A stretch of 32,000 nucleotides of DNA from Desulfocapsa sulfexigens DSM 10523 (GTDB lineage: Bacteria; Desulfobacterota; Desulfobulbia; Desulfobulbales; Desulfocapsaceae), in the NCBI RefSeq assembly GCF_000341395.1, contig NC_020304.1:2490001-2522000 (forward strand), read 5' to 3'. The notes beneath the pieces were generated by a model. That model ran no database searches and was not told the DNA's origin. It saw nothing but the letters and a program-made list of their open reading frames with translations. Made by a program: the position numbers and the translations under genes. Shown here in pieces: positions 2,845 to 32,000 of this stretch. Each line of letters opens with the position of its first letter. Positions within the stretch are counted from its first letter, which is position 1.

Positions 2845-3228
2845 ATAATCCCATGCTTGATCAAATTCTTATCAACAACTCCCTTGTCCCAGGCAAAACT
2901 GCGACATTTGTGAAGAATAATACTATTGTGTATCTCATCCATACTGTAGGTGTATACTCACGCTATTTAGATGTCAACTTTTAGTGAGGGAGGATATGCT
3001 TGCTGGTTTGTGTGAATCGCCACGAGTATTCTAGACACTCATCTCCTTTATAGCAGCCCATAAATTATAAGGCTAAAATAAGAGAAGAACAGTAGATCTA
3101 TTAATCTGGGACATTGACAGGATATTGAATCTTCGGAATGGCTGTACGTTATAGCTCAGGGGATTTCGCCACTTTACCCCGATATTTGCCCAAAGATCGG
3201 ACTGGCAAAATTTTCCCGCAGCGCCTTG

Positions 3229-3525
3229 TTATGCTATTAGTTCATCTACAGGTAGTATTTGCTTAGTGTGACGGATAGTAAGAATGGCAATACTCATCTC
3301 TTCTATTCGGTAAATTATTCGATAATTACCAAAAATAATTCCTCTTATTTCTTTTCTGTTTATTTCTGGAACAGTACGGCCCATTTTGGGCATTGAATTT
3401 AAGATTAGAACTTTTTCAAAAATATCATCAATCCATTTTGATGCAGCCGTAGGATTGTCTAATGAAATATATTCTGCAATTTCCGAGGCTCTATCAATAG
3501 CTAATGGAGACCAGGTTATTTTCAT
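3229..3525 (-). CDS. parE: type II toxin, ParE/RelE family
   Basis: 98 aa. The pattern MKITWSPLAIDRASEIAEYI...PKMGRTVPEINRKEIRGIIFGNYRIIYRIEE..IAILTIRH is typical of ParE/RelE toxins. Its ATG overlaps the antitoxin stop (ATGA, 3522-3525). Confidence 0.85.
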   Translation of the reverse strand: MKITWSPLAIDRASEIAEYISLDNPTAASKWIDDIFEKVLILNSMPKMGRTVPEINRKEIRGIIFGNYRIIYRIEEMSIAILTIRHTKQILPVDELIA

Positions 3526-3803
3526 TTGGATATTCTCTTTAAGATCATATCCTTTGCGTTTTTGTGTGCTACTCCTTCTCCATTTTCAATTTGGCTAATT
3601 GCTTTTTGCACATCACTTAGCAATTCGATCTTTTCCTGCATAGCTTCATATTCGCCTACGTCCAACAATACAGCAGCACCTTTGCCATGCTGAGTAATAA
3701 TTAGTGGTCTTTTAGTATCGTGGACTTGCTTAAGAAAAGAAGCTATTCCTGCCCTGAATTCTGACATAGAACGTATATCTTGATCTACTCTCAATCTTTG
3801 CAT
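3522..3803 (-). CDS. phd: type II antitoxin, Phd/YefM family
   Basis: 93 aa. It has the SMSEFRAGIASFLKQVHDTKRPLIITQHGKGAAVLLDVGEYEAMQE motif and is upstream of parE, translationally coupled to it. Confidence 0.85.
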   Translation of the reverse strand: MQRLRVDQDIRSMSEFRAGIASFLKQVHDTKRPLIITQHGKGAAVLLDVGEYEAMQEKIELLSDVQKAISQIENGEGVAHKNAKDMILKRISK

Positions 3804-3831
3804 TTGGGCATCTCCTTTGGTGTGGAATGTG

Positions 3832-3847
3832 GTACATTATAACGTAC
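3832..3847. promoter_or_regulatory. Imperfect 16-bp palindrome GTACATTATAACGTAC, candidate Phd/ParE operator
   Basis: It lies 29-44 nt upstream of the phd start. TA operators are usually promoter-overlapping palindromes. Confidence 0.35.
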
Positions 3848-3989
3848 TTCAGGAGGTTCGTGCAATGGTTATTGTTTCGAGGCGAATAACGAGTCTGCAG
3901 AAAAACCCAATTTCCAGAAAGGTTCTCCTGCCTGACTTCAGAATTCTGATTTAGACTAAATTGTTTTTATCCTAATTGGTTATATCACA

Positions 3990-5720
3990 CCTGCTAAATT
4001 TGTCATGAAAATCATAACAGACGCATGTATTTGATCTTCTAACCCATGCCTTTCCCTTTGTTTGTCTTATGTTGCTCCTGGCATTCCATAGTTATGCACC
4101 TTTTTCAGGTTATGGACGACACAAAACAACAGCCATTGGTTGTTGACCTTCTTTTTCCCTCGAAAGCTGAAACGATCTAATCCCATGACATGTCTGATAT
4201 GTGCAAAAGGTGGCTCTGCTGTTGCTATTCTCTTGGCGTAGATGGCCTTGCCTATAACAGAATCAATCTTGCTTTTCATCTTATCAGCAAAAGATGCACC
4301 TGTGTTTGTAGGTACCGTACCAAGCGCACATGTCACTTGTCGTACTTCTGTTCTCTCTGGATACCGGAGGCATTGGGTTCTCAGTTTACATGGGCGGCAG
4401 TTTTTTTTCTGGCCTGTAAAAGCAGCACGCTTCACTCCTCTTAATAATGGAAAACCGCTTTTGTACATCCGCTTACCCGCTGGGCATACGCAATAACGAA
4501 ACTCTGGGTCAAATGTGAAATCTTTTGGAAGAAACTGCTTGCGCGAGTGATCTATTTTCCTGCGTTCCTCTGTTGTTCTTTCTTTGTATCTACCAGCATT
4601 GTCAAACCGGGGGTCTCTTTTGCGGAAATAGCGGTCCGCGATATAGGCATCTATTTGCTCTTCTGCCAACATCTCCATATTCTTATTGGTGTGAAAACCA
4701 CTGTCTGCGGTCAGTTTTGTGGTCTTGAAAACATCTTCGTCACTCTCAATACTCTCAAAGTTTTTACGCGTTATTTCTATCATCGGAGATAGTAAATTGT
4801 ATTCGGTGGCCTCTCCGTAGGCTGCAGCTCCAACGATCACCTGGTGCCTGTTATCCACCATCGCAACGCCATTATATCCCTGGATTATACCATTGGAGGA
4901 TTTTATCTTGGCACTGTCGTTATCTGTTATGTTGGACTTGGTGGGAGTCTTATTATGGCCTGGCTTGTCATCATTATCATCCATCCATTCTTTTATTTTT
5001 TTCACCTGTTTCTTCAGGGTTGAAACATACTGTTTCTCGGTTTCCTTTACTCTATTCTCAGGTTTTGTTAGATCTGCTTCACGGTGACGTTTGACGATAC
5101 GTTCAATGGCATTTTCCAACTTCAGGCATTTTCTCTTAAAATCTTTCTTCGTTCCGCTCCACTCTTTTGAGGCATTTGAAGGGAGCTTACATCCATCAAC
5201 GGCAAACATCTCTCGTCCGATGAGGCCCATTGCATCGCAGACGAGGAGGACCTCCCGGAAGAGTGTGATCACCTCTTTATCCATACTGGAAATAAAGTTA
5301 GAAATGGTTGTGAAGTGAGGTCTGCTATGGGCTGATAGAGCCATGAAAACCACATTTTCCTCACAGCACTTGGCTATCTCTCTACTTGAGGTTATCCCTC
5401 TGGAATAGGCAAACAAAACAACTTTTAACAAGATACGGGGATCATAAGCGGGGGCACCATTTTCGTCATTCCGATAACGACTATCCAAATGAGACAAGTC
5501 CATTTCATGATCTATAAGATAGTTGATGGAGTACTCAAAAGTACCTTTCTGAAGCTGCTTGTTGAAAAAGACCGGGAGGAAATGACCTTGTGCAGGGTTA
5601 TAGGGCTTGTATTTTGCCACAATGAACCTCTTTTTAGATGTTCAGTTGTCTGTTTGGTTAACTTCGGCAAAATATAGCATATTTTGTCAATAATATCAAG
5701 GTGGTTATGGTTATTCTACA
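3990..5720 (-). mobile_element. IS1182-family insertion sequence; the ends are NOT resolved and the coordinates are approximate
   Basis: The transposase fills 4067-5620. I could not find convincing terminal inverted repeats by eye in 3950-4066 versus 5621-5730. Confidence 0.3.
4067..5620 (-). CDS. IS1182-family (IS5-like) DDE transposase
   Basis: 517 aa. The N-terminus is MAKYKPYNPAQGHFLPVFF...PAYDPRILLKVVLFAYSRGITSSREIAKCCEENVVFMALS. The DDE region includes FAVDGCKLPSNAS and LTADSGFHT, and a Cys-rich segment reads CVCPAGKRM...CRPCKLRTQC. It has a GTG start with an AAGAGG SD 7 nt upstream. Confidence 0.85.
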   Translation of the reverse strand: MAKYKPYNPAQGHFLPVFFNKQLQKGTFEYSINYLIDHEMDLSHLDSRYRNDENGAPAYDPRILLKVVLFAYSRGITSSREIAKCCEENVVFMALSAHSRPHFTTISNFISSMDKEVITLFREVLLVCDAMGLIGREMFAVDGCKLPSNASKEWSGTKKDFKRKCLKLENAIERIVKRHREADLTKPENRVKETEKQYVSTLKKQVKKIKEWMDDNDDKPGHNKTPTKSNITDNDSAKIKSSNGIIQGYNGVAMVDNRHQVIVGAAAYGEATEYNLLSPMIEITRKNFESIESDEDVFKTTKLTADSGFHTNKNMEMLAEEQIDAYIADRYFRKRDPRFDNAGRYKERTTEERRKIDHSRKQFLPKDFTFDPEFRYCVCPAGKRMYKSGFPLLRGVKRAAFTGQKKNCRPCKLRTQCLRYPERTEVRQVTCALGTVPTNTGASFADKMKSKIDSVIGKAIYAKRIATAEPPFAHIRHVMGLDRFSFRGKKKVNNQWLLFCVVHNLKKVHNYGMPGAT

Positions 5721-5727
5721 GGCTCAA

Positions 5728-5798
5728 CGTTTGAGTTAACCAGTGCGCCACCCAAAGATGCAGATGAGGCAACCAACCTCTTCGCATCTGGTTAAACG
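5728..5798 (+). repeat. About 71-nt imperfect palindrome (attC-like or terminator-like stem-loop) immediately 5' of the intron insertion site
   Basis: The outer arms CGTTT[GAG]TTAACCAGTGCG (5728-5747) and CGCATCTGGTTAAACG (5783-5798) are complementary with extrahelical bases. There is an inner hairpin GATGCAGATGAGG/CCTCTTCGCATC (5757-5788). The right end GTTAAAC (5791-5797) fits the GTTRRRY consensus. Confidence 0.4.
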
Positions 5799-6344
5799 CC
5801 TGGTGTACGCCCGACATGGGCGTGAACTAATGGGGTTAGAGTCCCCTGTAAGTGTTCCATGTAACGTTGTGAAACGTAACATAAATTACTAGCCAATGGC
5901 AAGGGCGTTACCGTGAGGTAGGGTCTGAAGGAAGCCGGATGGCAAAGATATGGGGTGACGAACAGAAATATCATATAAGGCCGAGTCTCTGGGTCAGTCA
6001 GCACAACATGATTACGCCCGGGAACAGGAGATACGGTAAATGATGCGCTCGCATATCGGAAGTTCACGCTCTTATTCGGGGAGATCTGTATTCCATGCAA
6101 TATGAAATTATTTCCAGTGAAATTACCGGTGGGGTTCCGGTTTCCAAATATCCCGGCATAGACAGGGAATGTCCTGCCCGTCTGTGAGATACGAAGAAAG
6201 AAGACAGACAGGAAATGATGAAATACGGCACCACTTTGAGCAATCGGAATGGTGAGAATGCAGAAGTCAGCAGAAGCCATAGTAGTCCAAAGCCGGGGGT
6301 AATGCCGCGGACACGGTGAAGGGCTGAACATTAAGGAGAGAAAT

Positions 6345-7694
6345 ATGTTGCCAAGACATCTTACACGTACTGTGAACCTGAACGGGGGAGTAGTGTATAA
6401 GCGTATCGCGGATGAGCAGTTCTCAAACGATCAACTACTGGAACGTATAGTTTCGACAGAGAATGTCGGTAAGGCCTGGAAACAGGTGCGCAGTAATAAA
6501 GGTGCTCCCGGAATCGACGAAATAACAGTCGGGGATTTCCCGTTCACTTTTCGTGAATGCTGGCCTGAAATACGCTCAACCATACTGGAAGGGAATTACA
6601 CCCCTTCTCCTGTTCAGAGAGTTGAAATCCCCAAACCGGATGGCAGTACTCGTCCTCTTGGGATTCCAACTGTGCTGGATAGAGTTATCCAGCAGGCCAT
6701 CGCTCAGGTTATGAGTCCTATTTTCGAGCCTCATTTTTCAGAATCGAGTTGTGGGTTCAGACCGGGCAGATCAGCCCATGATGGAGTGAAGCAGATAAAG
6801 CAGTACATCAGACAGGGCTACAAAGTCGCAGTTGATATGGATTTGTCGAAATTCTTCGACACAGTCAACCACGATGTTCTGATGAACCGGGTATCACGTC
6901 GGATAGAAGATAAACGTGTACTCAAGCTTATCGGCAAATACCTTCGGGCTGGCGTAATGGTTAATGGCCGTCGTCTTGCAACTCCGCTTGGAGTACCGCA
7001 GGGCGGTCCTCTTTCGCCACTTCTTGCAAATATTCTTCTTGACGATCTGGATAAGGAACTGGAGAAACGTGGTCACCACTTCGTTCGTTATGCCGATGAC
7101 TTCATCATTTTAGTGAAAAGTCTTTCAGCAGCAGAACGGGTGATGGCCAGTGTCAGCAGATTCCTGAAAAGAGAGCTACGGCTAATCGTCAACGAGAAGA
7201 AAAGCAGTTTTGGTAAAGTGGAGGAATGCAGTTTTCTCGGGTTTGTCTTTGTGCGAGGCAAAATAAGATGGAGCGACAAAGCCTTTTGTGAGTTCAAAAG
7301 ACGTATTCGTCTTTTTACCGGAAGAAGCTGGGGCGTCTCCATGGAATACCGCCTACACAAACTTGCAGAGTATGTACGGGGCTGGATAAACTATTACGGC
7401 ATTTCGGAGTATTATCGCCCGATCCCGATAGTAGACGAATGGCTCCGTCGCAGGATACGAATGTGTTTCTGGAAACAATGGAGATATACACGAACCAAAG
7501 TGTCCAATCTTCTCAAGCTGGGAACCTTCAAAAGACAGGCAATTATGACAGCATTAAGTCGTAAAGGCCCATGGCATCTCGCCAGAACCCTGGCTGCACA
7601 AACGGGCATGACCAACAAATGGCTGAAAGAACTTGGGTTGATATCTGTCAAAGACCAGTGGGTGAAGATTCACTATCCGGCTCAGGCCCGATGA
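6345..7694 (+). CDS. group II intron-encoded reverse transcriptase/maturase (no endonuclease domain evident)
   Basis: 449 aa. RT motifs are RVEIPKPDGSTRPLGIPTVLDRVIQQA, GFRPGRSAHD, AVDMDLSKFFDTVNH, GVPQGGPLSPLLANILL and RYADDFIILV. A maturase X-like region reads GWINYYGISEYY. There is a strong SD (AAGGAGAG) before the ATG. Confidence 0.92.
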   Translation: MLPRHLTRTVNLNGGVVYKRIADEQFSNDQLLERIVSTENVGKAWKQVRSNKGAPGIDEITVGDFPFTFRECWPEIRSTILEGNYTPSPVQRVEIPKPDGSTRPLGIPTVLDRVIQQAIAQVMSPIFEPHFSESSCGFRPGRSAHDGVKQIKQYIRQGYKVAVDMDLSKFFDTVNHDVLMNRVSRRIEDKRVLKLIGKYLRAGVMVNGRRLATPLGVPQGGPLSPLLANILLDDLDKELEKRGHHFVRYADDFIILVKSLSAAERVMASVSRFLKRELRLIVNEKKSSFGKVEECSFLGFVFVRGKIRWSDKAFCEFKRRIRLFTGRSWGVSMEYRLHKLAEYVRGWINYYGISEYYRPIPIVDEWLRRRIRMCFWKQWRYTRTKVSNLLKLGTFKRQAIMTALSRKGPWHLARTLAAQTGMTNKWLKELGLISVKDQWVKIHYPAQAR

Positions 7695-7704
7695 CCTTAA
7701 TGAA

Positions 7705-7772
7705 CCGCCCTATGCGGAGCCGCTTGTGGGGTGGTGTGGGGAGGGCGAGGGAAAACCTCGCCCTTACCCGAT
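7705..7772 (+). ncRNA. Intron domain V (7705-7734), J5/6 (7735-7737), domain VI (7738-7769) and 3' tail
   Basis: DV is CCGCCCTATGCG-GAGC-CGCTTGTGGGGTGG. It has a 9-bp lower helix with CGC at positions 2-4 (central G.U wobble), a 2-nt 3'-strand bulge, a 3-bp upper helix and a tetraloop. DVI is GGGGAGGGCGAGG-GAAAA-CCTCGCCCT(TA)CCC, with unpaired A7766 as the putative branch point. The intron ends ...CCCGAT at 7772. Confidence 0.6.
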
Positions 7773-7808
7773 TCGGCGATTTTCACCATCTGGCTTGTCG
7801 CTAAACCT

Positions 7809-7846
7809 AAAAAAGGCCAGGCACTCTCATGAGTATCCGGCCTTTT
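7809..7846 (-). terminator. Rho-independent terminator after the 146-aa gene (bidirectional A/T tails)
   Basis: On the minus strand it reads AAAAGGCCGG-loop-CCTGGCCTTTTTT, about 30 nt after the stop at 7878. Confidence 0.7.
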
Positions 7847-7877
7847 AAAGGTATGAAAATATGATAAATATTTTTGA

Positions 7878-8318
7878 TTATCCAGGGGAAGGTGCATTGC
7901 TCTTAGGTTCTTTTATTAAGTCAACTAGAAATGGAATTTCGCTATCTAACTTCCATCGTGTATTTCTTTTTGTTTCAACCGTTATCAAGTATTCACCTTC
8001 ATGCTCAGCCACAAGGTTAGCTATTTCAACGTTTATGTTTGCTGTCCTGCCTACAGGACCACCAATTACAATTGGTTGTTCCAGTAGTATTTCTTTTTTT
8101 TCTGTTCCGGGAACAATTATCCCTATACGGAAACGAATATTTCTTTTATTTTTAGAATTATAGAACCATGTTGAGGTGAGTATTAATGGTGGTATTTTAG
8201 ATGGCAGACCTGTAAGGCCAAATGAAGCTCCACTTAACACCTCGATAAAACTTGGTAATTTAGTTCTTTCATCTGCTATTACTTTGCTACAGATGAGACT
8301 CGTCACATGTCGGATCAT
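7878..8318 (-). CDS. hypothetical 146-aa protein, third gene of the hicAB unit; possibly DUF6941-like (weak recollection)
   Basis: The ORF is MIRHVTSLICSKVIADERTKLPSFIEVL...RTANINVEIANLVAEHEGEYLITVETK...IPFLVDLI. No catalytic motif was recognised. It starts 28 nt after the hicB stop with an AAAGGA SD. Confidence 0.6.
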   Translation of the reverse strand: MIRHVTSLICSKVIADERTKLPSFIEVLSGASFGLTGLPSKIPPLILTSTWFYNSKNKRNIRFRIGIIVPGTEKKEILLEQPIVIGGPVGRTANINVEIANLVAEHEGEYLITVETKRNTRWKLDSEIPFLVDLIKEPKSNAPSPG

Positions 8319-8346
8319 ATCATCATCATCCTTTTAATACTCTTAA

Positions 8347-8868
8347 TTATTGTAAGCTGAAGTTATTTGAGCTGCCGGACAAAAATGCACCGACTGCACT
8401 TTCTTTAGTACCTTCAATGTCGGTAGTGATATTCAAATATTGAGAATGCTCAGAGGCAAGGATGGCAACATTTTTAGCCATACCCGCTGTTTGACCAATG
8501 ATCGCTTTAAGTTCATCAATAACGTTTTTGTACACTTCAACTTTGCTGGAGCGTTCTTGGAGCATTGACACAATTTGTGAATTAAGAGAAATTCCTTCTT
8601 GTTCAGCTATTTTTGACAACCGTTCATGGAGTGAAACAGGTAGTCGTAGTCGAAATTGTCCACTGAACTTTTTCGCTGTTTGTGGCAACGGAATTTCTTC
8701 ACCATCTTCTTTTAATATTTCTATTGCATCAGCTAAAACCAAATTTAATTGTGCAGTTGCTTTTTCTTGTGTTTCGCCAAACCCCGACAAAAATGGAAAT
8801 TCCATTGAAGTCGCCACAAAGCACTCATCCTCTTCGCTCCACAAGGTACTTATAGAATATTTGTGCAT
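8347..8868 (-). CDS. hicB: HicB-family antitoxin (HicB N-domain + ribbon-helix-helix) with about 65-aa C-terminal extension
   Basis: 173 aa. The N-domain reads YSISTLWSEEDECFVATSMEFPFLSGFGETQEKATAQL...EDGEEIPLP. The RHH-like segment reads FRLRLPVSLHERLSKIAEQEGISLNSQIVSMLQ. An extra tail follows: SSKVEVYKNVIDELKAIIGQ...SNNFSLQ. Confidence 0.75.
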   Translation of the reverse strand: MHKYSISTLWSEEDECFVATSMEFPFLSGFGETQEKATAQLNLVLADAIEILKEDGEEIPLPQTAKKFSGQFRLRLPVSLHERLSKIAEQEGISLNSQIVSMLQERSSKVEVYKNVIDELKAIIGQTAGMAKNVAILASEHSQYLNITTDIEGTKESAVGAFLSGSSNNFSLQ

Positions 8869-8881
8869 TATGATCCCTTTA

Positions 8882-9160
8882 TTATAATTTTATCTGAAAT
8901 TCTTCTATGAAACTAAGTAACTGTTTTACTTGGTAGGGTTTAGCTTTGCTTTTATCTCGTTCATCATGTTGAAAGTTCATCAAATTATTGGGTGCTTTGA
9001 TGGTTGAGTGTTTATACATGAATCCATGACCAGAACTTTTTCTTCTCTCAAAGCCAGCTTTCCCTGCTAACTTCAAAAGATTTTTAAAGCTAACATTCTT
9101 TGGGTTGGCAATCGCATCTCCTAATAGCTTTTCTATACGACTCATCAGGTCATCTCTCAT
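8882..9160 (-). CDS. hicA: HicA-like toxin (mRNA interferase family), divergent
   Basis: 92 aa. Motifs are FKNLLKLAGKAGFERRKSSGHGFMYKH...KAKPYQVKQLLSFIEE. It lies 13 nt upstream of hicB in the canonical hicA-hicB order. Confidence 0.6.
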   Translation of the reverse strand: MRDDLMSRIEKLLGDAIANPKNVSFKNLLKLAGKAGFERRKSSGHGFMYKHSTIKAPNNLMNFQHDERDKSKAKPYQVKQLLSFIEEFQIKL

Positions 9161-9280
9161 TATGGTACCACAGGGGGGACCATTTTGTAAACTATCTGTA
9201 TTTATTTATCAAGGGTTAATTTTATGCAAGGCTTACCTATCTCCGCCAGCCGAACGCCAGAGATAACCGGCTTGCCAACC

Positions 9281-9370
9281 AGTTGGCTACCAAGTTCAAA
9301 CGGCTAAAATTATTGAAGCTAACTCAAGAGAACGCGCGTGCTCGCAAGTCGGGTTGATTGATTTGTTATG
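9281..9370 (-). repeat. Candidate attC-like site B (poorly symmetric)
   Basis: On the minus strand it reads ACATAAC(9370-9364)...GTTATCT(9287-9281). The arm CCGACTTGC can pair with GCAAGCCGG, but only with a 12-nt offset. It shares TTGTTATGT and a GCGCG-rich arm with site A. Confidence 0.3.
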
Positions 9371-9420
9371 TTATTTCATGCACATATGATATTTACAGCA
9401 GTGTTTATCTGTGCGAAACT

Positions 9421-10281
9421 TTAATTTATTGCCCATTTTTGAATGTTGAATTTATTACTTTCACCGCTATATGCCCAATTTGCACCTGTTGCAACAGCGA
9501 AATCATTACCGAAGGTTGTTAATTTAACTGACCAAAAGTAAGATGAATCTAGTGTTTGAGGACAACGCTCATCTTTTCTTTTTTCTTTTTTATATTTTTC
9601 AAATTCACTCCAAAGTTTACCCATAACTCCATAAGAATATTTTGAACCGCAGTCTTCGTGAGGGAATAATGATTCCTTTTTAGTTTTGACAAGACCGAGT
9701 CTTTCTAGGTTGCTGATGTATAACCACATTCTGGAATTATTTTTTATGCCAGCCTTAACTTGTAAAGGGAAACTGTCTTTAGAAAACTGAAAACCACTTT
9801 CTACTTTCATATAAAGGCTAGCAAATATATGTGCTTCTATAATATTGTATGGCGACGAAGCAATAACAGAGAAAATTCGGCATTCGTCGGATACCAAATT
9901 TTTTAGAACTTCTGCAAAAGCTGGGTGGGTAGTATCAATTTTTTCTTGATCCATATTCCCTGCAAGTAAGTTTACAAACATAGTTCTTGGCAGCGGGTCT
10001 TCTGCATTTATGGTTGACTGTAGTCCTTGGATTACCCTGATTGCCATCTCTGGTTCTGGGCTAACGATAGTTGAAGGGTCTTTTCTCTCATTTTTGAACT
10101 TTTGCTCAATTGCGGATTCAACCCAGTCAAATGTTTTATCTACTGTTGATATAAGGCCGGAGACAGGACGTAAGGTTACTTTGATTGCTTCAGTCAAAGT
10201 GTTGCCAAATTCTTTTGCGGCACCGTGCACTACATCATCATAAATTTTGGGGATCAAAGACTTAATAACTTTTTCTTCCAT
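9421..10281 (-). CDS. Abi-alpha / DUF4393-like protein (abortive-infection-associated family)
   Basis: 286 aa from ATG 10281, which has an AAGGATGA SD. The track's TTG start at 10308 is less likely. The N-terminus GAAKEFGNTLTEAIKVTLRPV and the motif AEDPLPRTMFVNLLAGNMDQE resemble the Abi_alpha signature (..LQ.MWA.LLA..). Confidence 0.6.
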   Translation of the reverse strand: MEEKVIKSLIPKIYDDVVHGAAKEFGNTLTEAIKVTLRPVSGLISTVDKTFDWVESAIEQKFKNERKDPSTIVSPEPEMAIRVIQGLQSTINAEDPLPRTMFVNLLAGNMDQEKIDTTHPAFAEVLKNLVSDECRIFSVIASSPYNIIEAHIFASLYMKVESGFQFSKDSFPLQVKAGIKNNSRMWLYISNLERLGLVKTKKESLFPHEDCGSKYSYGVMGKLWSEFEKYKKEKRKDERCPQTLDSSYFWSVKLTTFGNDFAVATGANWAYSGESNKFNIQKWAIN

Positions 10282-10297
10282 TATTTCATCCTTACAA

Positions 10298-10421
10298 ACA
10301 TAACGCAAAGCTAAGACGCGCGCCTAGCCGAGGTTAGAGTAGGTTCGAGTTGTATTGAGATGGCCGAAGCCGATTTAGCAAAGCGCAAGTTTGCGCGTCG
10401 TGCTTGAGCGAATTGTTATGT
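10298..10421 (-). repeat. attC-like recombination site A (124 bp imperfect palindrome)
   Basis: It has exact inverted 7-mers ACATAAC (10298-10304) and GTTATGT (10415-10421). The adjacent arms GCAAAGCTAAGACGCGCGCC and GCGCGTCGTGCTTGAGCGAATT pair with extrahelical bases. It starts 5 nt after the stop of the upstream (minus-strand) ORF and ends 16 nt before the next ATG, which is the classic cassette layout. Confidence 0.55.
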
Positions 10422-10426
10422 ATTTT

Positions 10427-10936
10427 CTATTTTGGCGTAATTGTACCAGTTGCTTTTTGGTCTGGACAGCTCTCAACTTCATACGATGCATTTTCAATAT
10501 AATAAGTGATTTTACAGCCGGTTACTTCATGTTCGCCTAAATAAGCTATGGGGTGCTCTGTTAATATGATTTTATCATCCTCTTTGTCGTACTCCGCTTT
10601 TCCTGATGATGTTGAATGGCCGTTATTAATTTGAATTTTAACATCATTTGTGGCGATGAGTTTTTTTACCTTCTCAGCCATTTTTTCGTCGCCTGAATTA
10701 GAAATATTTTCGTGCAAAATAACCAGCTTTTGGCACTCAATTTTCATATTGGTTGATGTGGCAACTACGTCTTTTGTAATGATGATGATGTTTTCTTTAT
10801 TTTTGAACTCCCAATAGTCACCTATGACATGCAACTTAGATGCACCAATATAACCCTCTGCGGCCTTAATTTGCGGGACATAACTGGCAATTGCTAAGAG
10901 GATTGTGAAAAGGGCGATTGGTTTCTTGGTGTTCAT
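10427..10936 (-). CDS. secreted protein with LptA/OstA-N-like beta-jellyroll pattern
   Basis: 169 aa. The signal peptide is MNTKKPIALFTILLAIASYVPQIKAAEG. The LptA-like repeats read ITKDVVATSTNMKIECQKLVIL...LIATNDVKIQINNGHSTSSGKAEYDKEDDKIILTEHPIAYLGEHEVTGCKITYYIEN. Confidence 0.5.
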   Translation of the reverse strand: MNTKKPIALFTILLAIASYVPQIKAAEGYIGASKLHVIGDYWEFKNKENIIIITKDVVATSTNMKIECQKLVILHENISNSGDEKMAEKVKKLIATNDVKIQINNGHSTSSGKAEYDKEDDKIILTEHPIAYLGEHEVTGCKITYYIENASYEVESCPDQKATGTITPK

Positions 10937-10949
10937 TTGGTGTTCATAT

Positions 10950-10998
10950 ACATAACAGTGTTAATACATGGACAATGTCCATCATATTACCTTATATC
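10950..10998 (-). repeat. Short attC-like or operator palindrome upstream of the LptA-like gene
   Basis: It reads ACATAAC-AGTG-TTAATAC-ATGGACA-A-TGTCCAT-CATATTA-CC-TTATAT. It begins 13 nt upstream of ATG 10936. It is shorter than typical attC sites. Confidence 0.3.
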
Positions 10999-11658
10999 TG
11001 GCTACATTTTCCTCTTATCTTGATATTAAAACATTCTGCATGGAAAATAGTGTCCACTTATTACCTTGAAATCTCTATTTTCCAGCTATTGCCATATTAG
11101 GGCCAAAAAGTGGAAAAACAGACGGTTTGCGTCATTTTTCCCACAAACATAACCGGACTGTTTTTTTATAGATATTATGGGAGATGTCCAGTGGGCAAGA
11201 ATGGCCTAGGCAGAAATACCTTAAGTTAATATAATTTCCGCTCCTCTTCCTTCAAATAAACCACCATCCATTAAAACAGACGATCCATACTTATTCAATG
11301 AATAAATGTGCTATTTGTTTGATAATTCAAATGAATTTTTTGTAAAGATGTGCGGTGGCAAGGGTAACTGTCGTGCAATATAGGCAGGTTTAGATGTTTT
11401 TTATACATCTCGATTTCAAAAGAGTGACTGAAACTCAACCGACTGGAAACATAAAAATTTAGGTAAACAGGAGGAGTGTGATTGTTTAGAGTTATGTGGA
11501 ATTCCAGAAATTTCCCTTGGCCATTCACGCCGGAATCGTGGTCTGTCCCTTAATCCCTGCTTAATCCCCCACTGCAGGTGACGTCAATACATGGGCTTTG
11601 TTTATTGCCATTAGAAATAAAAAACGTGGGACAGGAGTGGGATAGGGGGGGGCAAATG

Positions 11659-11694
11659 AAAAAAGCACATAGGGCAAAAACGCTCTATGTGCTT
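11659..11694 (-). terminator. Rho-independent terminator downstream of tRNA-Gln
   Basis: On the minus strand it reads AAGCACATAG-loop-CTATGTGCTT followed by TTTTT, about 10 nt after the tRNA CCA end. Confidence 0.65.
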
Positions 11695-11704
11695 GAATTT
11701 TCAA

Positions 11705-11778
11705 TGGCTGGGGGACAGGGATTCGAACCCCGATAAGCGGAGTCAGAGTCCGCTGTCTTGCCGTTAGACCATCCCCCA
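11705..11778 (-). tRNA. tRNA-Gln (anticodon CUG), CCA encoded
   Basis: I folded the reverse complement TGGGGGATGGTCTAACGGCAAGACAGCGGACTCTGACTCCGCTTATCGGGGTTCGAATCCCTGTCCCCCAGCCA by hand. It gives a 7-bp acceptor, a 4-bp D stem, the anticodon stem GCGGA/TCCGC with loop CTCTGAC, and a T arm with GGTTCGAAT. Confidence 0.9.
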
Positions 11779-26029: not shown

Positions 26030-26359
26030 TCACGGGGTTTCTGTATTCGACGCGTAAAGAGTTATTCCATGTGTTTTAATATGTTCGAGCAGGTTTTCAT
26101 TTTGAGTTGACTCCAGGTGGATACAATCGAAAAAGTAGGGAAGTAAGGTTTCCTCTTCGAGGTAGTCTCGGATGCGGCTCACAAGCTGCGGTGTTACTTT
26201 TTCCCCACTGAATGCACAGTCAATATCGGATCCAGATTTTGCGTTACCTAATGCTCTGGAACCGAAAACCACAACTCTTTCGATTTCAGGGTAGCTGGAA
26301 AATATGGAAATCAGTTGTGACACTGTTTGCGGCGGTAGGTCAATTCTCTTCCTGCTCAT
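26030..26359 (-). CDS. minimal nucleotidyltransferase (MNT, HI0073-like)
   Basis: It has the VVVFGSRALGNAKSGSDIDCAF (GS..D.D) motif. The likely start is Met16 of the track ORF (26359), which overlaps the upstream gene by 20 nt. Confidence 0.78.
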   Translation of the reverse strand: MSRKRIDLPPQTVSQLISIFSSYPEIERVVVFGSRALGNAKSGSDIDCAFSGEKVTPQLVSRIRDYLEEETLLPYFFDCIHLESTQNENLLEHIKTHGITLYASNTETP

Positions 26360-26756
26360 TACATTCCTGGAACCATTTAACCAGTTTTGTGATTTCTGGT
26401 GCAAAGTCCTGTTTGATTAGTCTATATGATTCCATGGCGAGGGTTTCGTCATAGGTATGCGCCAGTAAGTTTCTTTTTCCCAGCATATCCAACCAGCACT
26501 CTCCTTCGTCAATTATCTGATGATGAAAAGCTTTCTTTATGATTTCTCTTGGAAATTGACAGATAACACCCTGGGCTTCGAGATAGTCTTTTAATGTCTT
26601 CCAGGAAAGTTCAAAGGTGAACTCAAAACTCTGGATAATACCCTGTCGCTCGATATCGCTGGGATGTTCAATGTCCAGTCCTCTTTGGAGCTGGCGAAAT
26701 GCCTTCTCCAAATTCTGGAACCGTTGTTGCCAGCGTATTGTTTTCAGTTGGTTCAT
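26340..26756 (-). CDS. HEPN-type nucleotidyltransferase substrate-binding protein (HI0074 family)
   Basis: 138 aa. Motifs are RWQQRFQNLEKAFRQL, FEFTFELSWKTLKDYL and the Rx4HxY motif KRNLLAHTY. Confidence 0.78.
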   Translation of the reverse strand: MNQLKTIRWQQRFQNLEKAFRQLQRGLDIEHPSDIERQGIIQSFEFTFELSWKTLKDYLEAQGVICQFPREIIKKAFHHQIIDEGECWLDMLGKRNLLAHTYDETLAMESYRLIKQDFAPEITKLVKWFQECNEQEEN

Positions 26757-28973: not shown

Positions 28974-29699
28974 TTAGGGAAATGGTTTCATATCTGTGTG
29001 GAGAGATACAAAAGTGGAAAAAATTGTATACGATACCACCATCATGAGCATATAAAAACCAACTTGCAACCCTAGCCCTGGCATTCCAAATAGGGGGAAA
29101 AATACGAAAATCAGGGCCGTGTAATCGGGGAAAGAGAGAAAGGACTTGATATTACGTTGAAACCACCATTGACGGTATCGGTTGTACCATCGAAAGAAAG
29201 GGAAAGTACCTAAGGTTTCTTTATGTTGCTTTACCGCAAATCCCATCAGATAGCTTATGTAGCATTCTGCGACATGCATAAACAGCATTGCCCAAATCCA
29301 AAGAGAGGACAGCATCCCTTGTGACCAAGCCAGGCAGAGCAGGATGAGGATGTCTCCTACCAGGTCGGACATGTGATCAAGGTAGCGACCTAATTCTGAT
29401 GATTGTTTGTTGATCCTGGCTACAGTCCCATCAGCACAATCACCCACATAGGCAAGATAATAACTTAATGCACCGATAATTAGCCCTGGGTAACTGTTTG
29501 TTAGAAAACAACTCATTGTTATCAGGCGAAAAGCAATGGCAGAAAATGTTATATGGTTTGCAGTCAATGATGTGCGGTTAACCACATATACAACTAATTT
29601 ACGCGAAACTGGTTGTATAAAAGGGAGCGCCCACCATGTTTTTAAAGACATCGCTGCATCTGCCTGGGACTCAGTGATCTTAGATTGCTTATCCGCCAT
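28974..29699 (-). CDS. CDP-alcohol phosphatidyltransferase family membrane protein
   Basis: It has the signature DCADGTVARINKQSSELGRYLDHMSDLVGD (D..DG..AR...G...D...D) and multiple TM helices. Confidence 0.85.
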   Translation of the reverse strand: MADKQSKITESQADAAMSLKTWWALPFIQPVSRKLVVYVVNRTSLTANHITFSAIAFRLITMSCFLTNSYPGLIIGALSYYLAYVGDCADGTVARINKQSSELGRYLDHMSDLVGDILILLCLAWSQGMLSSLWIWAMLFMHVAECYISYLMGFAVKQHKETLGTFPFFRWYNRYRQWWFQRNIKSFLSFPDYTALIFVFFPLFGMPGLGLQVGFYMLMMVVSYTIFSTFVSLHTDMKPFP

Positions 29700-30102
29700 T
29701 ACGTAATTGACCTTTTAAAGAAGAACTTGAGATGTCTTTTGTGCGGGGGAGATAGATGACTTCACAATACTCTTTTAAAAAATCAAATTCTCCCTTCCAG
29801 TCATCACCCATTACAAAGATATCAACTTTATAGTGCAATACATCTTTGATTTTCTGATCCCAGCTTTTTTCTGGAATAACCAGATCAACATAACAAATTG
29901 CTTCAAGGATTTCTTTTCGCTGATCAAAAGGTAAAAAAGATGACTTGTGTTTGAGTAGATTGAAATCATCAGCCGAAAGACCAACGATTAAAAAGTCTCC
30001 CAATGCTTTAGCACGTTTTAAAAGACGGATATGGCCAACATGGAGAAAATCAAAAGTGCCATAAGTGAGGATTGTTTTGATATTTGCATCAATAGACATC
30101 AT
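29689..30102 (-). CDS. tagD: glycerol-3-phosphate cytidylyltransferase (TagD-like)
   Basis: Motifs are ILTYGTFDFLHVGHIRLLKRAKALGDFLIVGLSADDFN...VMGDDWKGEFDFLKEYCEVIYLPRTKDISSS. From memory this is close to B. subtilis TagD. Its stop overlaps the next gene's start by 11 nt. Confidence 0.85.
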   Translation of the reverse strand: MMSIDANIKTILTYGTFDFLHVGHIRLLKRAKALGDFLIVGLSADDFNLLKHKSSFLPFDQRKEILEAICYVDLVIPEKSWDQKIKDVLHYKVDIFVMGDDWKGEFDFLKEYCEVIYLPRTKDISSSSLKGQLRNGG

Positions 30103-30103
30103 C

Positions 30104-31120
30104 TTATACCGCTAACTTCAACAATCTTAAGACTGGGTAGGATAGTTTTCCGAGGGACATAAATATTTTGGGTTGTAACCAAAAAAGTGTAAAGGATAAT
30201 TTATGTTTTATTGATTTTCCGTTTAGGACGTAGAACCAACCTAGTCTTCTGAATTCGTTGTTACTTTTAAGGAAATGGATGATTTGTTTTGTCCCATCGT
30301 TTTTGTTTGATTTGTCTATTAATTTGTATACTGATTCCATATTTAATTTTTCAAATTTTGCAATATTGTAGCCATTGCTTTTCAGTACATCAGAAAAACT
30401 ACTTTTACATATTGATGTCTCGATGAAATTGTATATTTTGAATAAATCAAAAATGTTCTTCATCTTTAATTCACTGGTATTTGATCCAGTTCTGAAACGT
30501 CTATAATAGTATAAATACTCATTGCACATTGCAACGCGTTTTGCATCCAACATGATTAAGTAGGAAAACTCGATATCCTCGTGGACATGATTTTCTCGGA
30601 ACGGAATTTTTATTGCCAAATCACGAGTAATAAATTTGTTGCATGCAGATAGGCAGAACGAATTGTAATTTAGGGATTCAGTGAGAAATATTTTACCAGT
30701 TATTATGTTTTCGTGAAGATAACTGTTTCGTTTTATACGTCTATCTCCAATCGCTAGATAATATTCATATACTAATACATCAAGGTTGTGTTTTTTAGCT
30801 TTTTTGTAAAGAATTTCGCAGGTATTGTTGGCAATCCAATCATCGCTGTCTATGAACAAAACATACTCGCCGGTAGATTGTTTAACCCCAATATTACGCG
30901 CACAACTGGTTCCGGAGTTGGCTTGCTTGATTATTTTTATTCTAGAGTCAATAGATTGATATTTTTCACTAACTTGAAGTGTGTTATCTGTTGACCCATC
31001 ATCTACTATTATAATTTCAATATTCTCTAGTGTTTGATTCACAACAGACTCTAAACATTCACTGATATATGTTTCTACATTATATGCTGGAATTATTAGA
31101 CTTACGTTTGGGGGATTCAT
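30104..31120 (-). CDS. glycosyltransferase family 2
   Basis: It reads MNPPNVSLIIPAYNVETYISECLESVVNQTLENIEIIIVDDGSTDNT...FIDSDD. I chose the start at Met14 of the track ORF (31120). The gene is visibly AT-rich. Confidence 0.82.
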   Translation of the reverse strand: MNPPNVSLIIPAYNVETYISECLESVVNQTLENIEIIIVDDGSTDNTLQVSEKYQSIDSRIKIIKQANSGTSCARNIGVKQSTGEYVLFIDSDDWIANNTCEILYKKAKKHNLDVLVYEYYLAIGDRRIKRNSYLHENIITGKIFLTESLNYNSFCLSACNKFITRDLAIKIPFRENHVHEDIEFSYLIMLDAKRVAMCNEYLYYYRRFRTGSNTSELKMKNIFDLFKIYNFIETSICKSSFSDVLKSNGYNIAKFEKLNMESVYKLIDKSNKNDGTKQIIHFLKSNNEFRRLGWFYVLNGKSIKHKLSFTLFWLQPKIFMSLGKLSYPVLRLLKLAV

Positions 31121-31121
31121 C

Positions 31122-31266
31122 TTAACGGCTTGCCTCTGTAGAGCCATCATTGATAACAATTATTTCTATATTCTTAAGAGTTTGATCCATTACTGATGAG
31201 AGACATATTGAAAATATATTTTTCAGCGTTAATCGAAGAGATAATAATACTAATTTTCGGTTCCAC
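31122..31266 (-). pseudogene. Frameshifted N-terminal remnant of another GT2 gene
   Basis: My manual translation gives (V)EPKISIIISSINAEKYIFN. After a 1-nt frame change it continues CLSSVMDQTLKNIEIIVINDGSTEASR*. This is a GT2 N-terminal signature that stops after about 50 aa, directly abutting the intact GT2 start. Confidence 0.5.
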
Positions 31267-31293
31267 AAAATCATGTCTGCTAAGGTTAGCTTC

Positions 31294-32000
31294 CTATTTC
31301 ACACTCCATCTTTTTTTTTCACCACAGGCAAGACGAAACATATCTGCGATTTCAAGGCCAATTTTTTTTGAAAAAATTGTCACTACCAAAAGCTTTAATA
31401 ACGAAATAGGAAATTCATAAAACTGATGACACAATGGAATTTGATAGCCCAATTCTTTTGAGATCTGTCTGTTTTCAAGTAAAATACCAAGACCTGATGT
31501 GAGCTTTCCAGAAACACCGCCTATAGGCATTCGATCAATTAAAAGATCGAAATACTCAGGTTCCTTATTTAATATTGATTCCATCATCAAGTAACTATCT
31601 CCAGAAATTCTTAAACGAATGTCGAAAGGCTCATTAGCTACAAAAAGTGACTTATGGTGAAATGTTGCTGGATGCGGTGGCAATTGAGGGCGGAGTAAAG
31701 TCCATTCATTTTTCAATTCACACCACGGCTTATCAATTATATCTATCACTTGTCTTTTTATTTCAGACACCAGAAGTAAATTTCCATATACTAAGTCATG
31801 AAAAGGATGCGCCTTCGCAAGGACTGATGCCATTTTTTCAAGAGTGTCAGGATCAGCCAACTCATCCCCAGCGCCTATGAATTGTATCCATTCCCCTTTT
31901 GCATGTCGCAGCGCTTTGTTCCAAGCATCATAAATCCCCTGGTCCGGTTCACTGAACCACAGGTCAATAATATCTTCGTATTGCTTAACCACTGAAAGAG
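31294..32000 (-). CDS. glycosyltransferase family 2 (WcaE-like), C-terminal part; the start lies beyond the right edge
   Basis: It reads SEPDQGIYDAWNKALRHAKGEWIQFIGAGDEL.... The frame stays open upstream of the track's GTG at 31992 to the window end. Confidence 0.7.
   Translation of the reverse strand, partial: LSVVKQYEDIIDLWFSEPDQGIYDAWNKALRHAKGEWIQFIGAGDELADPDTLEKMASVLAKAHPFHDLVYGNLLLVSEIKRQVIDIIDKPWCELKNEWTLLRPQLPPHPATFHHKSLFVANEPFDIRLRISGDSYLMMESILNKEPEYFDLLIDRMPIGGVSGKLTSGLGILLENRQISKELGYQIPLCHQFYEFPISLLKLLVVTIFSKKIGLEIADMFRLACGEKKRWSVK

Follow-up and report, generated by a model that had tools for sequence, protein, structure and literature searches.

By definition, a CALIN has two or more attC sites on the same strand, spaced by less than 4 kb, and lacks a nearby intI (PMC4889954). 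A preprint (bioRxiv 10.1101/2024.07.02.601686) presents sedentary chromosomal integrons, for example the Vibrio superintegron, as a reservoir in which toxin-antitoxin and anti-phage cassettes are kept. Among the insertion sequences, the IS1111-attC group of the IS110 family inserts into gene cassettes in one orientation and attC-specifically (Tetu & Holmes 2008 and Post & Hall 2009, as cited in PMC3971601), with a transposase that PMC11187229 gives as DEDD.

We analysed a 32-kb window of a Desulfocapsa genome of ~4 Mb, together with 8.5 kb further left. Three attC sites (attC_A, attC_B and attC_C) were found on the minus strand, with gaps of 0.9 kb and 3.4 kb, both under 4 kb, and no intI or intI pseudogene was found within the ~10 kb searched. 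Because neither an integrase nor a relic of one occurs in the window or in the 8.5 kb to its left, as the sequence-only reading of this DNA had already noted for intI, the CALIN definition applies, and we put the probability that the region is a chromosomal CALIN in a tRNA-Gln variable region at roughly 85%.

Compared with described CALINs (PMC4889954), the locus shows no essential difference, sharing their small size, non-resistance cassettes, toxin-antitoxin modules and an insertion sequence inside the element. What sets it apart is that it directly adjoins a tRNA gene, that its 748-bp leader contains additional 7-mers resembling R boxes, and that two different attC-seeking elements have struck one of its attC sites. 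With sedentary chromosomal integrons it shares the chromosomal setting, self-promoted toxin-antitoxin cassettes and a defence candidate (Abi_alpha, PDC-S47), whereas it has no intI or attI, only three to four cassettes, and heterogeneous attC sites in place of a uniform species-specific repeat. The locus is a new CALIN from Desulfocapsa, which belongs to the Desulfobacterota and disproportionates sulfur; its cassettes comprise an orphan one for an LptA-like, putatively secreted protein, an Abi_alpha defence candidate and two toxin-antitoxin cassettes. The array is real but ordinary and leaves knowledge of integrons unchanged; it illustrates the decay of an orphan array, attC_C being disabled at both recombination boxes by the two attC-seeking elements, and it confirms that a cassette array can be recognised from raw sequence alone.

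Three attC sites and an intron within one of them

An attC site was taken to comprise an inverse core R'' (RYYYAAC) and a core R' (GTTRRRY) with conserved AAC and GTT, to span ~57–141 nt, and to lie at the 3' end of a cassette ORF in a single orientation, its polarity being set by extrahelical bases on the R''/L'' arm of the bottom strand. The search used a covariance model, R1, trained on 14 verified class 1 integron attC sites only; R1 is a small model in which the aadA-type 60-nt family predominates; its calibration is only rough, and it is distinct from the curated model of IntegronFinder. Applied to the window, R1 returned exactly three matches, all on the minus strand: attC_A (10298..10421, 124 nt; 32.2 bits, E 1.4e-6 over the whole window), attC_B (9249..9371, 123 nt; 25.2 bits, E 1.2e-4) and attC_C, whose match (5810..5722; 22.1 bits, E 8.4e-4) covers the main part of the site (5722..5804), the first six bases of an inserted intron standing in for part of the R'' box. 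The cassette array that the sequence-only reading had staked on such a model is borne out by these significant matches. No other match of at least 15 bits was obtained with R1 in 1.08 Mb of control genomic loci, and 341 kb of metagenomic arrays gave 199 attC matches with scores from 22 to 75 bits, several of them adjoining IntI homologues 40–55% identical to IntI1.

Aligned to the R1 structure, the three sites were 86% paired, and 6 of the 22 pairs showed compensatory changes affecting both partners; pairing fell to 20–38% when the 3' partners were slid by 1–3 columns. The sites share a layout of R boxes, an unpaired spacer of 5–7 nt and an L stem with two bulges, six pairs apart, on the 3' arm of the bottom strand, and each directly follows a gene or operon. 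AAC and GTT are present in all three, with inner positions one or two bases off the consensus. Their lengths are 124, 123 and 88 nt (the third with the intron removed), and they start 5, 49 and 100 nt past the stops at 10427, 9421 and 7878, respectively.

On the minus (top) strand, attC_A reads R'' ACATAAC, spacer AATTC and L'' GCT[C]AAG[C]ACG[A]CGCGC, then a variable loop, L', spacer TTTGC and R' GTTATGT. Its recombinogenic bottom strand is the plus strand, with bulged G, G and T on the 3' arm and a canonical minimum-energy fold (7-bp R box, 5-nt spacer, bulged L stem), and its R''-L'' arm is close to the aadA1 attC arm TAACAATTCGTTCAAGCCGACGCCGC. As had been read from the letters, the 7-mer pair at 10298 and 10415 bounds a 124-nt imperfect palindrome whose single-strand fold is bulged on one arm and which begins 5 nt past an ORF stop (codon 10427-10429); the distance from its low end (10298) to the next ATG (10284) is 13 nt rather than the 16 nt given before.

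attC_B has ACATAAC as its R'' box (9371..9365) and GTTCGGC as its R' box (9255..9249), with top-strand bulges C and A six paired positions apart. attC_B and attC_C each carry two bulges six paired positions apart in the model alignment; their minimum-energy folds are non-canonical, and they are assigned to attC by the R1 alignment. The L'-spacer-R' arm of attC_B resembles the attC that follows homologues of its cassette protein at two other loci (L094, L095). GTTATCT (9262-9268) was considered as the R' box of attC_B and set aside, R1 placing it as L'. The segment 9281-9370, earlier proposed for folding, is only part of an attC, as attC_B extends to 9249, outside the array start given as 9281; a second segment, 10950-10998, is not an attC but an isolated R' box with which the first cassette begins. 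R1 gave no match at 10950-11160, 11147-11497, 3804-4066 or 3141-3234, and the first three were rejected as attC sites for that reason. The candidate attC sites had no match in Rfam at gathering and E-value thresholds, and blastn of attC_A against plasmids returned nothing useful.

The array had been thought to be defined by the 7-mer ACATAAC/GTTATGT. The window contains 11 copies, where dinucleotide-preserving shuffles averaged 3.38 and never exceeded 7, and seven of the 11 fall within 9365-11497, where ~0.23 would be expected per 2.2 kb, in agreement with the earlier estimate of ~0.3. The enrichment in 2.2 kb therefore stands, and the count of six does not, a seventh copy (10878-10884) internal to ORF 10427-10936 having been overlooked. 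On re-reading, the shared contexts ACAAACATAAC at 10294 and 11143 were correct, the first 7-mer copy was found at 9365-9371 rather than 9364, and TTGTTATGT starts at 9363 rather than 9362. The 7-mer occupies both ends of attC_A and the R'' box of attC_B only, so that attC R boxes account for just three of the seven copies, and a fourth (10950) marks the first cassette boundary; the remaining R boxes of the array read GTTCGGC, GCCGAAC and GTTATTC, and the 7-mer does not define it. The copies at 11147 and 11491, previously counted as array members, both lie in the leader, outside every detectable attC.

attC_C is interrupted by an intron of 1968 nt (5805..7772, plus strand) with a reverse transcriptase/maturase ORF at 6345-7694. 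The intron occupies the bottom strand of attC_C within R'', opposite to the cassettes (CCTGGT/intron/TCGGC), and the remainder of R'' (7773..7777, minus-strand site, bottom strand TCGGC) is placed by the intron 3' end. Its ribozyme was matched by Rfam RF02001 (121.7 bits) and RF01998 (59.5 bits), and by RF00029 at 7703-7772 with 37.8 bits, slightly below the gathering score of 40. The 449-aa protein contains Pfam RVT_1 and GIIM, scores 403 bits with TIGR04416, and shares 54% identity, across 96% of its length, with the protein of an intron that lies in the intI1-blaIMP-26 integron of the S. marcescens plasmid CP083755, and 62% identity with that of a Methylocalor plasmid intron adjoining attC matches. 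The 3' end was set by RF00029 (7703-7772) and by alignment with a homologous locus (L092), whose junctions (GAATTGT/GTACGCCC... and ...CCCGAT/TAGAA) correspond to those of the window (CCTGGT/GTACGCCC... and ...CCCGAT/TCGGC). A 5' end at 5743 (GTGCG) was dropped for 5805 after the same alignment, and a Logan contig end at 5832 is consistent with this. Excision in silico joins GT (5803-5804) to TCGGC (7773-7777) and restores GTTCGGC, so that the restored R'' of attC_C reads GCCGAAC; its R' is GTTATTC or GTTGAGC.

Site, orientation and pairwise identity place this intron in the group IIC-attC type, and its insertion matches the published behaviour of such introns (S.ma.I2 and relatives; PMC3001079, PMC7923331), with which it shares the bottom strand, the opposite orientation and a TTGT/T-type R'' site. 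The CP083755 intron has the same opposite orientation, with the junction TTGT/T where the window has TGGT/T. The host here is a CALIN on a Desulfobacterota chromosome rather than a clinical class 1 integron.

Cassettes, leader and the tRNA-Gln border

The array had been placed at 9281-11497; it extends left to ~3141 through a HicA/HicB cassette, the doubly interrupted attC_C and a Phd/ParE cassette. The three minus-strand attC sites uphold the proposal of minus-strand ORF-attC units that carry toxin-antitoxin, Abi and small secreted-protein genes. Cassette 1 (10304..10955, minus strand, 652 bp) ends with attC_A and holds ORF 10427-10936, an LptA/OstA-like protein with a hydrophobic, signal-peptide-like N-terminus and a Pfam LptD_N match (1.4e-8); its TIGR03002 match falls short of the cut-off, and among 5.8 billion proteins it had no homologue but itself. 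Cassette 2 (9255..10303, minus strand, 1049 bp) ends with attC_B and holds ORF 9421-10284, with matches to Pfam Abi_alpha (9.6e-36) and the PADLOC candidate PDC-S47 (6.7e-31). Just two homologues of this Abi protein were detectable among 5.8 billion proteins (L094, L095), both with an attC at the stop codon and one within a three-attC array. Exact-sequence look-ups with the LptA-like, Abi, HicB and reverse transcriptase proteins retrieved no contig.

The coding part of cassette 3 (7778..9254, minus strand), which ends with attC_C, is an operon of a HicA-like ORF (8882-9160; Pfam HicA_toxin, weak at 0.074), a HicB ORF (8347-8868; Pfam HicB, 2e-10) and an ORF for a 146-aa protein (7878-8318; DUF6941, weak at 0.017), all on the minus strand. 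The cassette also contains a promoter-like site of its own (9191..9162) and a terminator-like hairpin (7803-7845), and HicA/HicB homologues adjoin an attC at another locus (L115). Cassette 4 (3141..3890, minus strand) contains Phd/YefM (3522-3803) and ParE (3229-3525) genes, both with Pfam matches, behind an upstream promoter-like site (TTGCAC-17-TATAAT), and Phd/ParE homologues are likewise found in attC arrays. At its end an attC-like hairpin is predicted at 3141-3234, where GCATAAC (R''-like) overlaps the ParE stop and the R' position reads GTACAGC (degenerate). From this predicted stem, which R1 does not match, we infer a possible fourth attC, decayed.

Upstream of the array, a lone R'-type box (GTTATGT, 10950..10956, minus strand) was read from the sequence 13 nt before the ATG of cassette 1, the same R'-to-ATG spacing as in cassette 2. 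This box marks the upstream cassette boundary and may be attI-like, attG-like or a truncated attC. With only 13 nt between R' and ATG, cassettes 1 and 2 would be reliant on transcription derived from the leader. The leader itself (10957..11704, 748 bp) is non-coding and separates the array from the tRNA-Gln; it contains two copies of the 7-mer (11147-11153 and 11491-11497), direct repeats (10975-10993 and 11050-11067) and, on the minus strand, a hairpin resembling a terminator (11110-11144; fold of 11040-11165, z = -2.9). R1 detected no attC upstream of the 10950 box, Rfam gave no match in the leader, and a six-frame Pfam scan of 10937-11704 found neither a protein-family match nor a relic. 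The description of 11154-11660 as ORF-free holds except for one ORF with a GTG start (11295-11528, 77 aa), which has no family match. The leader showed no similarity to the loci of relatives or to metagenomic integron loci, so no attI can be assigned. On a weaker reading, its lone GTTATGT boxes beside the tRNA-Gln may form a non-canonical docking site used in trans.

The tRNA-Gln(CTG) (11705..11778, minus strand; ARAGORN and Rfam) is conserved beside Memo/CysS in Desulfocapsa MAGs, and three contigs stop exactly at its 3' end; it is the conserved chromosomal border of a variable region. GC content is 36–39% in the array region and 44–49% in the flanks. Among 80 loci around Memo/tRNA-Gln in relatives, none carried the island, the leader or the left-flank genes, and no tRNA-derived direct repeat bounding an island was found. 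Logan contigs end at 10973, 8861 and 7729, at least partly, it appears, through low coverage; the break at 10973 is accordingly no sign of variable cassettes.

The position expected for intI holds the leader, the tRNA-Gln and the housekeeping genes Memo and CysS, and the layout of a complete integron (divergent intI, attI, Pc promoter) is absent, there being no intI. Pfam scans of the main ORFs of the window revealed no tyrosine recombinase, and no integrase was found among the called genes in the 8.5 kb further left (L091). The best E value in a tblastn search of the window with IntI1 was 0.35; this match (88-132) lies inside a Na+/H+ antiporter gene and was discarded as chance.

Origin of the array

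In the history that we propose, an integron integrase would have captured each cassette in turn, recombining the folded bottom strand of its attC at G/TT; this integrase would since have been lost, or would act from another place in the 4-Mb genome. With intact sites on either side, cassettes 1 and 2 are predicted to remain excisable in trans; since attC_C is disrupted in both of its R boxes, cassette 3 is probably frozen. The toxin-antitoxin cassettes with their own promoters may stabilise the array.

A different origin, which we hold possible though doubtful, is that no local integron ever included the array: an integrase working in trans would have inserted cassettes at an attG-like site in the tRNA-Gln variable region, with later additions at the resulting hybrid site. 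Integrases are reported to insert cassettes at genomic GWT sites, a proposed origin of small CALINs (bioRxiv 10.1101/2022.09.11.507474), and ~95% of CALINs have no intI pseudogene nearby (PMC4889954). The upstream boundary is consistent with this, being a lone GTTATGT with no adjacent attC or recognisable attI next to 748 bp of leader free of any intI relic, as is the hybrid-looking R' at the distal end (GTACAGC), which is however a poor fit to GWT. Against it, the leader has two extra 7-mers, which point to eroded remnants of older sites more than to naive genomic DNA, and no empty site was recovered among the loci of relatives compared. This alternative bears on the origin of the array only and agrees on what the array is.

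It is also conceivable, if unlikely, that a rearrangement split the array from a complete integron, still active, with its intI elsewhere in the genome, and that this integrase still serves the array. About half of CALINs occur in replicons that encode IntI (PMC4889954), only 32 kb of ~3.99 Mb was examined, attC_A and attC_B appear intact, and the insertion sequence and intron present could mediate rearrangements. The visible 40 kb offers no support for this, however, and the attC sites differ among themselves, whereas those of large sedentary chromosomal integrons are uniform; moreover, the double disruption of one attC and the decay of another suggest that the array has seen little integrase activity in recent times.

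Finally, that the palindromes are REP-like, MITE-like or terminator elements of a tRNA-linked defence/toxin-antitoxin island, with no relation to integrons, is highly improbable and largely refuted: the tRNA-Gln is an insertion hotspot in the genus (the three contigs ending at its 3' end), one locus (L003) has after it a 132-aa ORF that by eye resembles a tyrosine recombinase N-terminus (a candidate), and the whole-sequence fold energies of the palindromes are no better than those of shuffles, but when each intergenic palindrome was compared by blastn with the window and with ~1 Mb of related loci, only the query and no second copy came up, the sites score with a model whose training set was solely class 1 integron attC, homologous genes at other loci have attC beside integron integrases, and an attC-specific intron sits at the canonical position.

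An insertion sequence at the attC_C R' box

The chromosomal CALIN carries its second interruption in the R' box of attC_C, an IS1182-family insertion sequence (3891..5725, minus strand, 1835 bp) with a transposase at 4067-5620 that scores 272.8 bits with NCBIfam NF033551 against a cut-off of 270. Its terminal inverted repeats, GAGTCTGCAGAAAAACC and GAGCCTGTAGAATAACC, match at 14 of 17 positions. The element sits in the GTT of the R' box (5728..5726), with GTT duplicated on either side, and the same GTT/TIR junctions recur at four other loci (L173, L172, L127 and L218). Insertions into the GTT of attC were observed in Desulfocapsa, Pseudoalteromonas piscicida and several metagenomic arrays.

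Like the IS1111-attC elements, this is an insertion sequence that enters attC in a single orientation; it differs from them in being an IS1182-family DDE element with 17-nt inverted repeats and a 3-bp GTT duplication, inserted at the R' core. IS1111-attC elements are not known to have classical terminal repeats or target duplications. We tentatively suggest that an undescribed IS1182-family DDE lineage and its 159-bp MITEs might target the GTT crossover triplet of the attC R' box precisely and in a single orientation, duplicating GTT. If so, they would form a third class of attC-specific parasite, after the IIC-attC introns and the IS1111-attC elements; such elements would inactivate or reshuffle cassettes and could mark attC sites.

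As a by-product of the analysis, the IS lineage and its 159-bp MITEs appear to be attC-GTT-specific, and IS1182-type and MITE insertions in the GTT of attC merit a proper survey.

Identification of an attC array on the minus strand

Class 1 integrons were located in plasmids using IntI1, and 14 different attC sites were excised from between annotated cassette genes at nine loci and aligned. The textbook R box/L box structure, when imposed on this alignment, was 83% paired over the 14 sites, with covariation exceeding that of all 500 shuffles and far above that of shifted registers, and a covariance model (R1) was derived from the structured alignment. A search of the whole window with R1 and filters off returned exactly three matches, all on the minus strand: attC_A (10421..10298; 32.2 bits, E 1.4e-6), attC_B (9371..9249; 25.2 bits, E 1.2e-4), and attC_C (5810..5722; 22.1 bits, E 8.4e-4). 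Among 1.08 Mb of other loci, the sole match of at least 15 bits was the copy of attC_C in an identical contig. Independent metagenomic arrays gave 199 sites in 341 kb (22–75 bits), and several of these arrays adjoin IntI homologues that are oriented divergently, as usual (e.g., locus L137). Placed on the R1 structure, the three window sites were 86% paired (20–38% in shifted registers), and 6 of 22 pairs showed changes on both sides; the 86% figure leans towards the structure because the alignment was fitted to R1. Rfam gave no attC match.

The sequence-only reading had proposed a cassette array without an integrase at 9281–11497 on the basis of the 7-mer ACATAAC/GTTATGT. The enrichment was borne out, with seven copies in 9365–11497 versus approximately 0.23 expected, and 11 copies in the window, whereas 100 shuffles averaged 3.38 and never exceeded 7. 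The six copies originally listed omitted one at 10878, within an ORF, and the first begins at 9365, one base away from where it had been placed. The longer shared contexts of the 7-mer and the 124-nt palindrome at 10298–10421, 5 nt past a stop codon, were present as described, although 13 nt, not 16 nt, separate the palindrome from the following ATG. The three attC matches and the absence of a detected intI support the proposed array, whose coordinates are better set at approximately 3141–10956.

On its top (minus) strand, attC_A reads ACATAAC-AATTC-GCT[C]AAG[C]ACG[A]CGCGC ... GCGCGTCTTAGC-TTTGC-GTTATGT, very near the attC of aadA1 (GTCTAAC-AATTC-GTT[C]AAGCCG[A]CGCCGC). In the fold, the extra bases of attC_A map to the plus-strand 3' arm, which identifies the plus strand as the recombinogenic bottom strand; the cassettes are accordingly read on the minus strand, as had been inferred from the sequence. 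attC_B spans from ACATAAC (9371) to GTTCGGC (9255..9249); GTTATCT was rejected as its R' box, being the L' box according to R1. With boundaries at G|TT, the minus-strand cassettes, numbered from the side of tRNA-Gln, are cassette 1 (10955..10304, 652 bp), cassette 2 (10303..9255, 1049 bp), and cassette 3 (9254..5728, 1559 bp without an intron that it contains).

Pfam scans of the main ORFs revealed no tyrosine recombinase, tblastn with IntI1 gave chance matches only, and no match was obtained in any of the six frames of the leader, a 748-bp non-coding stretch (10957–11704) between tRNA-Gln and cassette 1. The 8.5 kb to the left of the window contains housekeeping genes. The array falls within the published definition of a CALIN, an attC cluster without an integron integrase (PMC4889954), and these results support the region being a typical small CALIN of an already known kind.

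Cassette genes and their homologues

The product of cassette 1 (10427–10936, minus strand) is a protein of 169 aa that has the LptA/OstA fold and begins with a hydrophobic segment. Since no homologue besides itself was found among 5.8 billion proteins, we regard this LptA-like protein as an orphan secreted cassette protein. Cassette 2 carries an Abi_alpha gene (9421–10284, minus strand) that matches the PADLOC candidate PDC-S47 and has only two detectable homologues among the 5.8 billion proteins. Both homologues have an attC at the stop codon (35.1 and 30.8 bits), with L'-spacer-R' arms resembling those of attC_B, and one sits within a three-attC array.

A search pattern derived from this Abi-homologue attC type (L094, JGI 3300082281, 1122–2972; loci L096–L175), whose arm is CCGGTTAT..C...CGTT, matched at least 120 metagenome contigs versus approximately 2 expected by chance. 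Some of these environmental sites carry the ACATAAC/GTTATGT R boxes of the window, and several of the contigs encode IntI homologues 40–55% identical to IntI1.

Cassette 3 contains, all on the minus strand, genes for a HicA-like protein (8882–9160), HicB (8347–8868), and a 146-aa protein (7878–8318) that begins 28 nt past the end of HicB and shows only a weak DUF6941 match; this arrangement suggests a three-gene HicA/HicB/X unit. A terminator-like hairpin (7803–7845) follows the 146-aa ORF. Homologues of HicA/HicB, and of the Phd (3522–3803, minus strand) and ParE (3229–3525, minus strand) proteins of cassette 4, were found in metagenomic attC arrays. In cassette 4, which comes after the IS described below, a promoter-like site (TTGCAC-17-TATAAT) precedes Phd/ParE, a GCATAAC motif resembling an R'' box overlaps the ParE stop, and a hairpin with the far end GTACAGC follows. 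This hairpin received no R1 score, and we infer that it is a decayed terminal attC.

Two mobile elements at attC_C

A plus-strand group II intron interrupts attC_C, with junctions CCTGGT|GTACGCCC... (5804|5805) and ...CCCGAT|TCGGC (7772|7773) by end alignment, and its excision in silico restores the bottom-strand R'' box GTTCGGC. The intron resembles IIC-attC introns, whose hallmarks are an anti-cassette orientation, insertion into the bottom strand, and a TTGT/T-type position (PMC3001079, PMC7923331), in all three respects. Across 96% of its length, the 449-aa intron protein shares 54% identity with the one from an intron of the Serratia marcescens plasmid CP083755, where the order is intI1(+), blaIMP-26(-), intron(+), qacEdelta1(-) and the junctions, also by end alignment, are GAATTGT|GTACGCCC... 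and ...CCCGAT|TAGAA. On a Methylocalor plasmid, the nearest relative of the intron (62% identity) likewise adjoins opposite-strand attC matches. In the same strain, one Logan contig stops 30 nt after 5802, consistent with a repeat boundary there.

The other end of attC_C adjoins an IS1182-family element (3891–5725; transposase 4067–5620, minus strand) whose inverted repeats agree at 14 of 17 positions. It is flanked by GTT on each side (top strand CAAAC-GTT|IS|GTT-ATTCGCC) and therefore sits in the R' core of attC_C, the original R' box being GTTATTC. The terminal repeat GAGSCTGTAGAAAAAS was found immediately after the R'-box GTT of attC at several other places, with GTT on both flanks every time: in a full IS with a 45% identical transposase (L173, 619), a 1839-bp IS with a 42% identical transposase in Pseudoalteromonas piscicida (L218, 5880–7718), and 159-bp MITE-like elements, two in L172 (4745–4903 and 6326–6484) and one in L127 (3891–4049). 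The transposase points away from the attC in all three full copies (window, L173, and L218), and GTT-flanked GAGSCTGTAGAAAAAS elements occur in Desulfocapsa, P. piscicida, and metagenomes. The searchable literature yielded no description of IS1182-type or MITE insertion at the GTT of attC, the attC-targeting IS described there being IS1111-attC elements of the IS110 family only; the IS1182-family IS and the 159-bp MITEs may represent an undescribed attC-targeting transposon lineage. The intI of the metagenomic integron in L127 (2746–3225), which adjoins the MITE-bearing attC, matches IntI1 in only two fragments (residues 9–105 and 279–325) and is, on this basis, probably a deleted pseudogene.

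Leader and chromosomal setting

A lone GTTATGT at 10950–10956 lies 13 nt before the ATG of cassette 1, a spacing identical to that of cassette 2, and marks a cassette boundary. Upstream of it, nothing folds as an attC or scores with R1. Two further copies of the 7-mer occur in the leader (11147–11153 and 11491), and the stretch 11040–11165 has a fold z of -2.9. This stretch contains a strong minus-strand terminator-like hairpin (GTGGGAAAAATGACGCAAACCGTCTGTTTTTCCAC then TTTTT, 11104–11144, with the hairpin itself at 11110–11144) that starts 2 nt past GTTATGT 11147–11153 and has no transcribed gene evident upstream. Just upstream of cassette 1, direct repeats 75 nt apart (10975–10993 and 11050–11067; (A/G)TGTCCA..TTATTACCTT) could be a putative regulator or recombinase binding site. 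The leader matched no Rfam family and no similar locus elsewhere. Its features could derive from an attI or attC that has eroded, or from a secondary insertion site of the described attG type (bioRxiv 10.1101/2022.09.11.507474), and integrase loss, trans insertion, and rearrangement therefore remain candidate origins of the array.

The leader abuts tRNA-Gln(CTG) (11705–11778, minus strand). GC content from there leftward to about 2850 is 36–39%, down from 44–49%, and Memo and CysS, to the right of the array, are 75–88% identical to Desulfocapsa MAG proteins. None of 20 related genomes has the array genes downstream of tRNA-Gln, three related MAG contigs (L007, L014, and L018) stop exactly at the tRNA-Gln 3' end, and one relative (L003) has at that end a 132-aa ORF (11024–11422) that by eye resembles a tyrosine-recombinase N-terminus, a likeness that no search bore out. 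The tRNA-Gln(CTG) 3' end beside Memo/CysS is therefore a variable-region hotspot in Desulfocapsa.

Elsewhere in the window, a nucleotidyltransferase substrate-binding (HEPN-like) gene (26340–26756) overlaps a 124-aa ORF (26030–26404), and together (26030–26756) they look like an MNT/HEPN-type toxin-antitoxin pair. This pair adjoins a low-GC (33%) glycosyltransferase cluster at 29500–32000.
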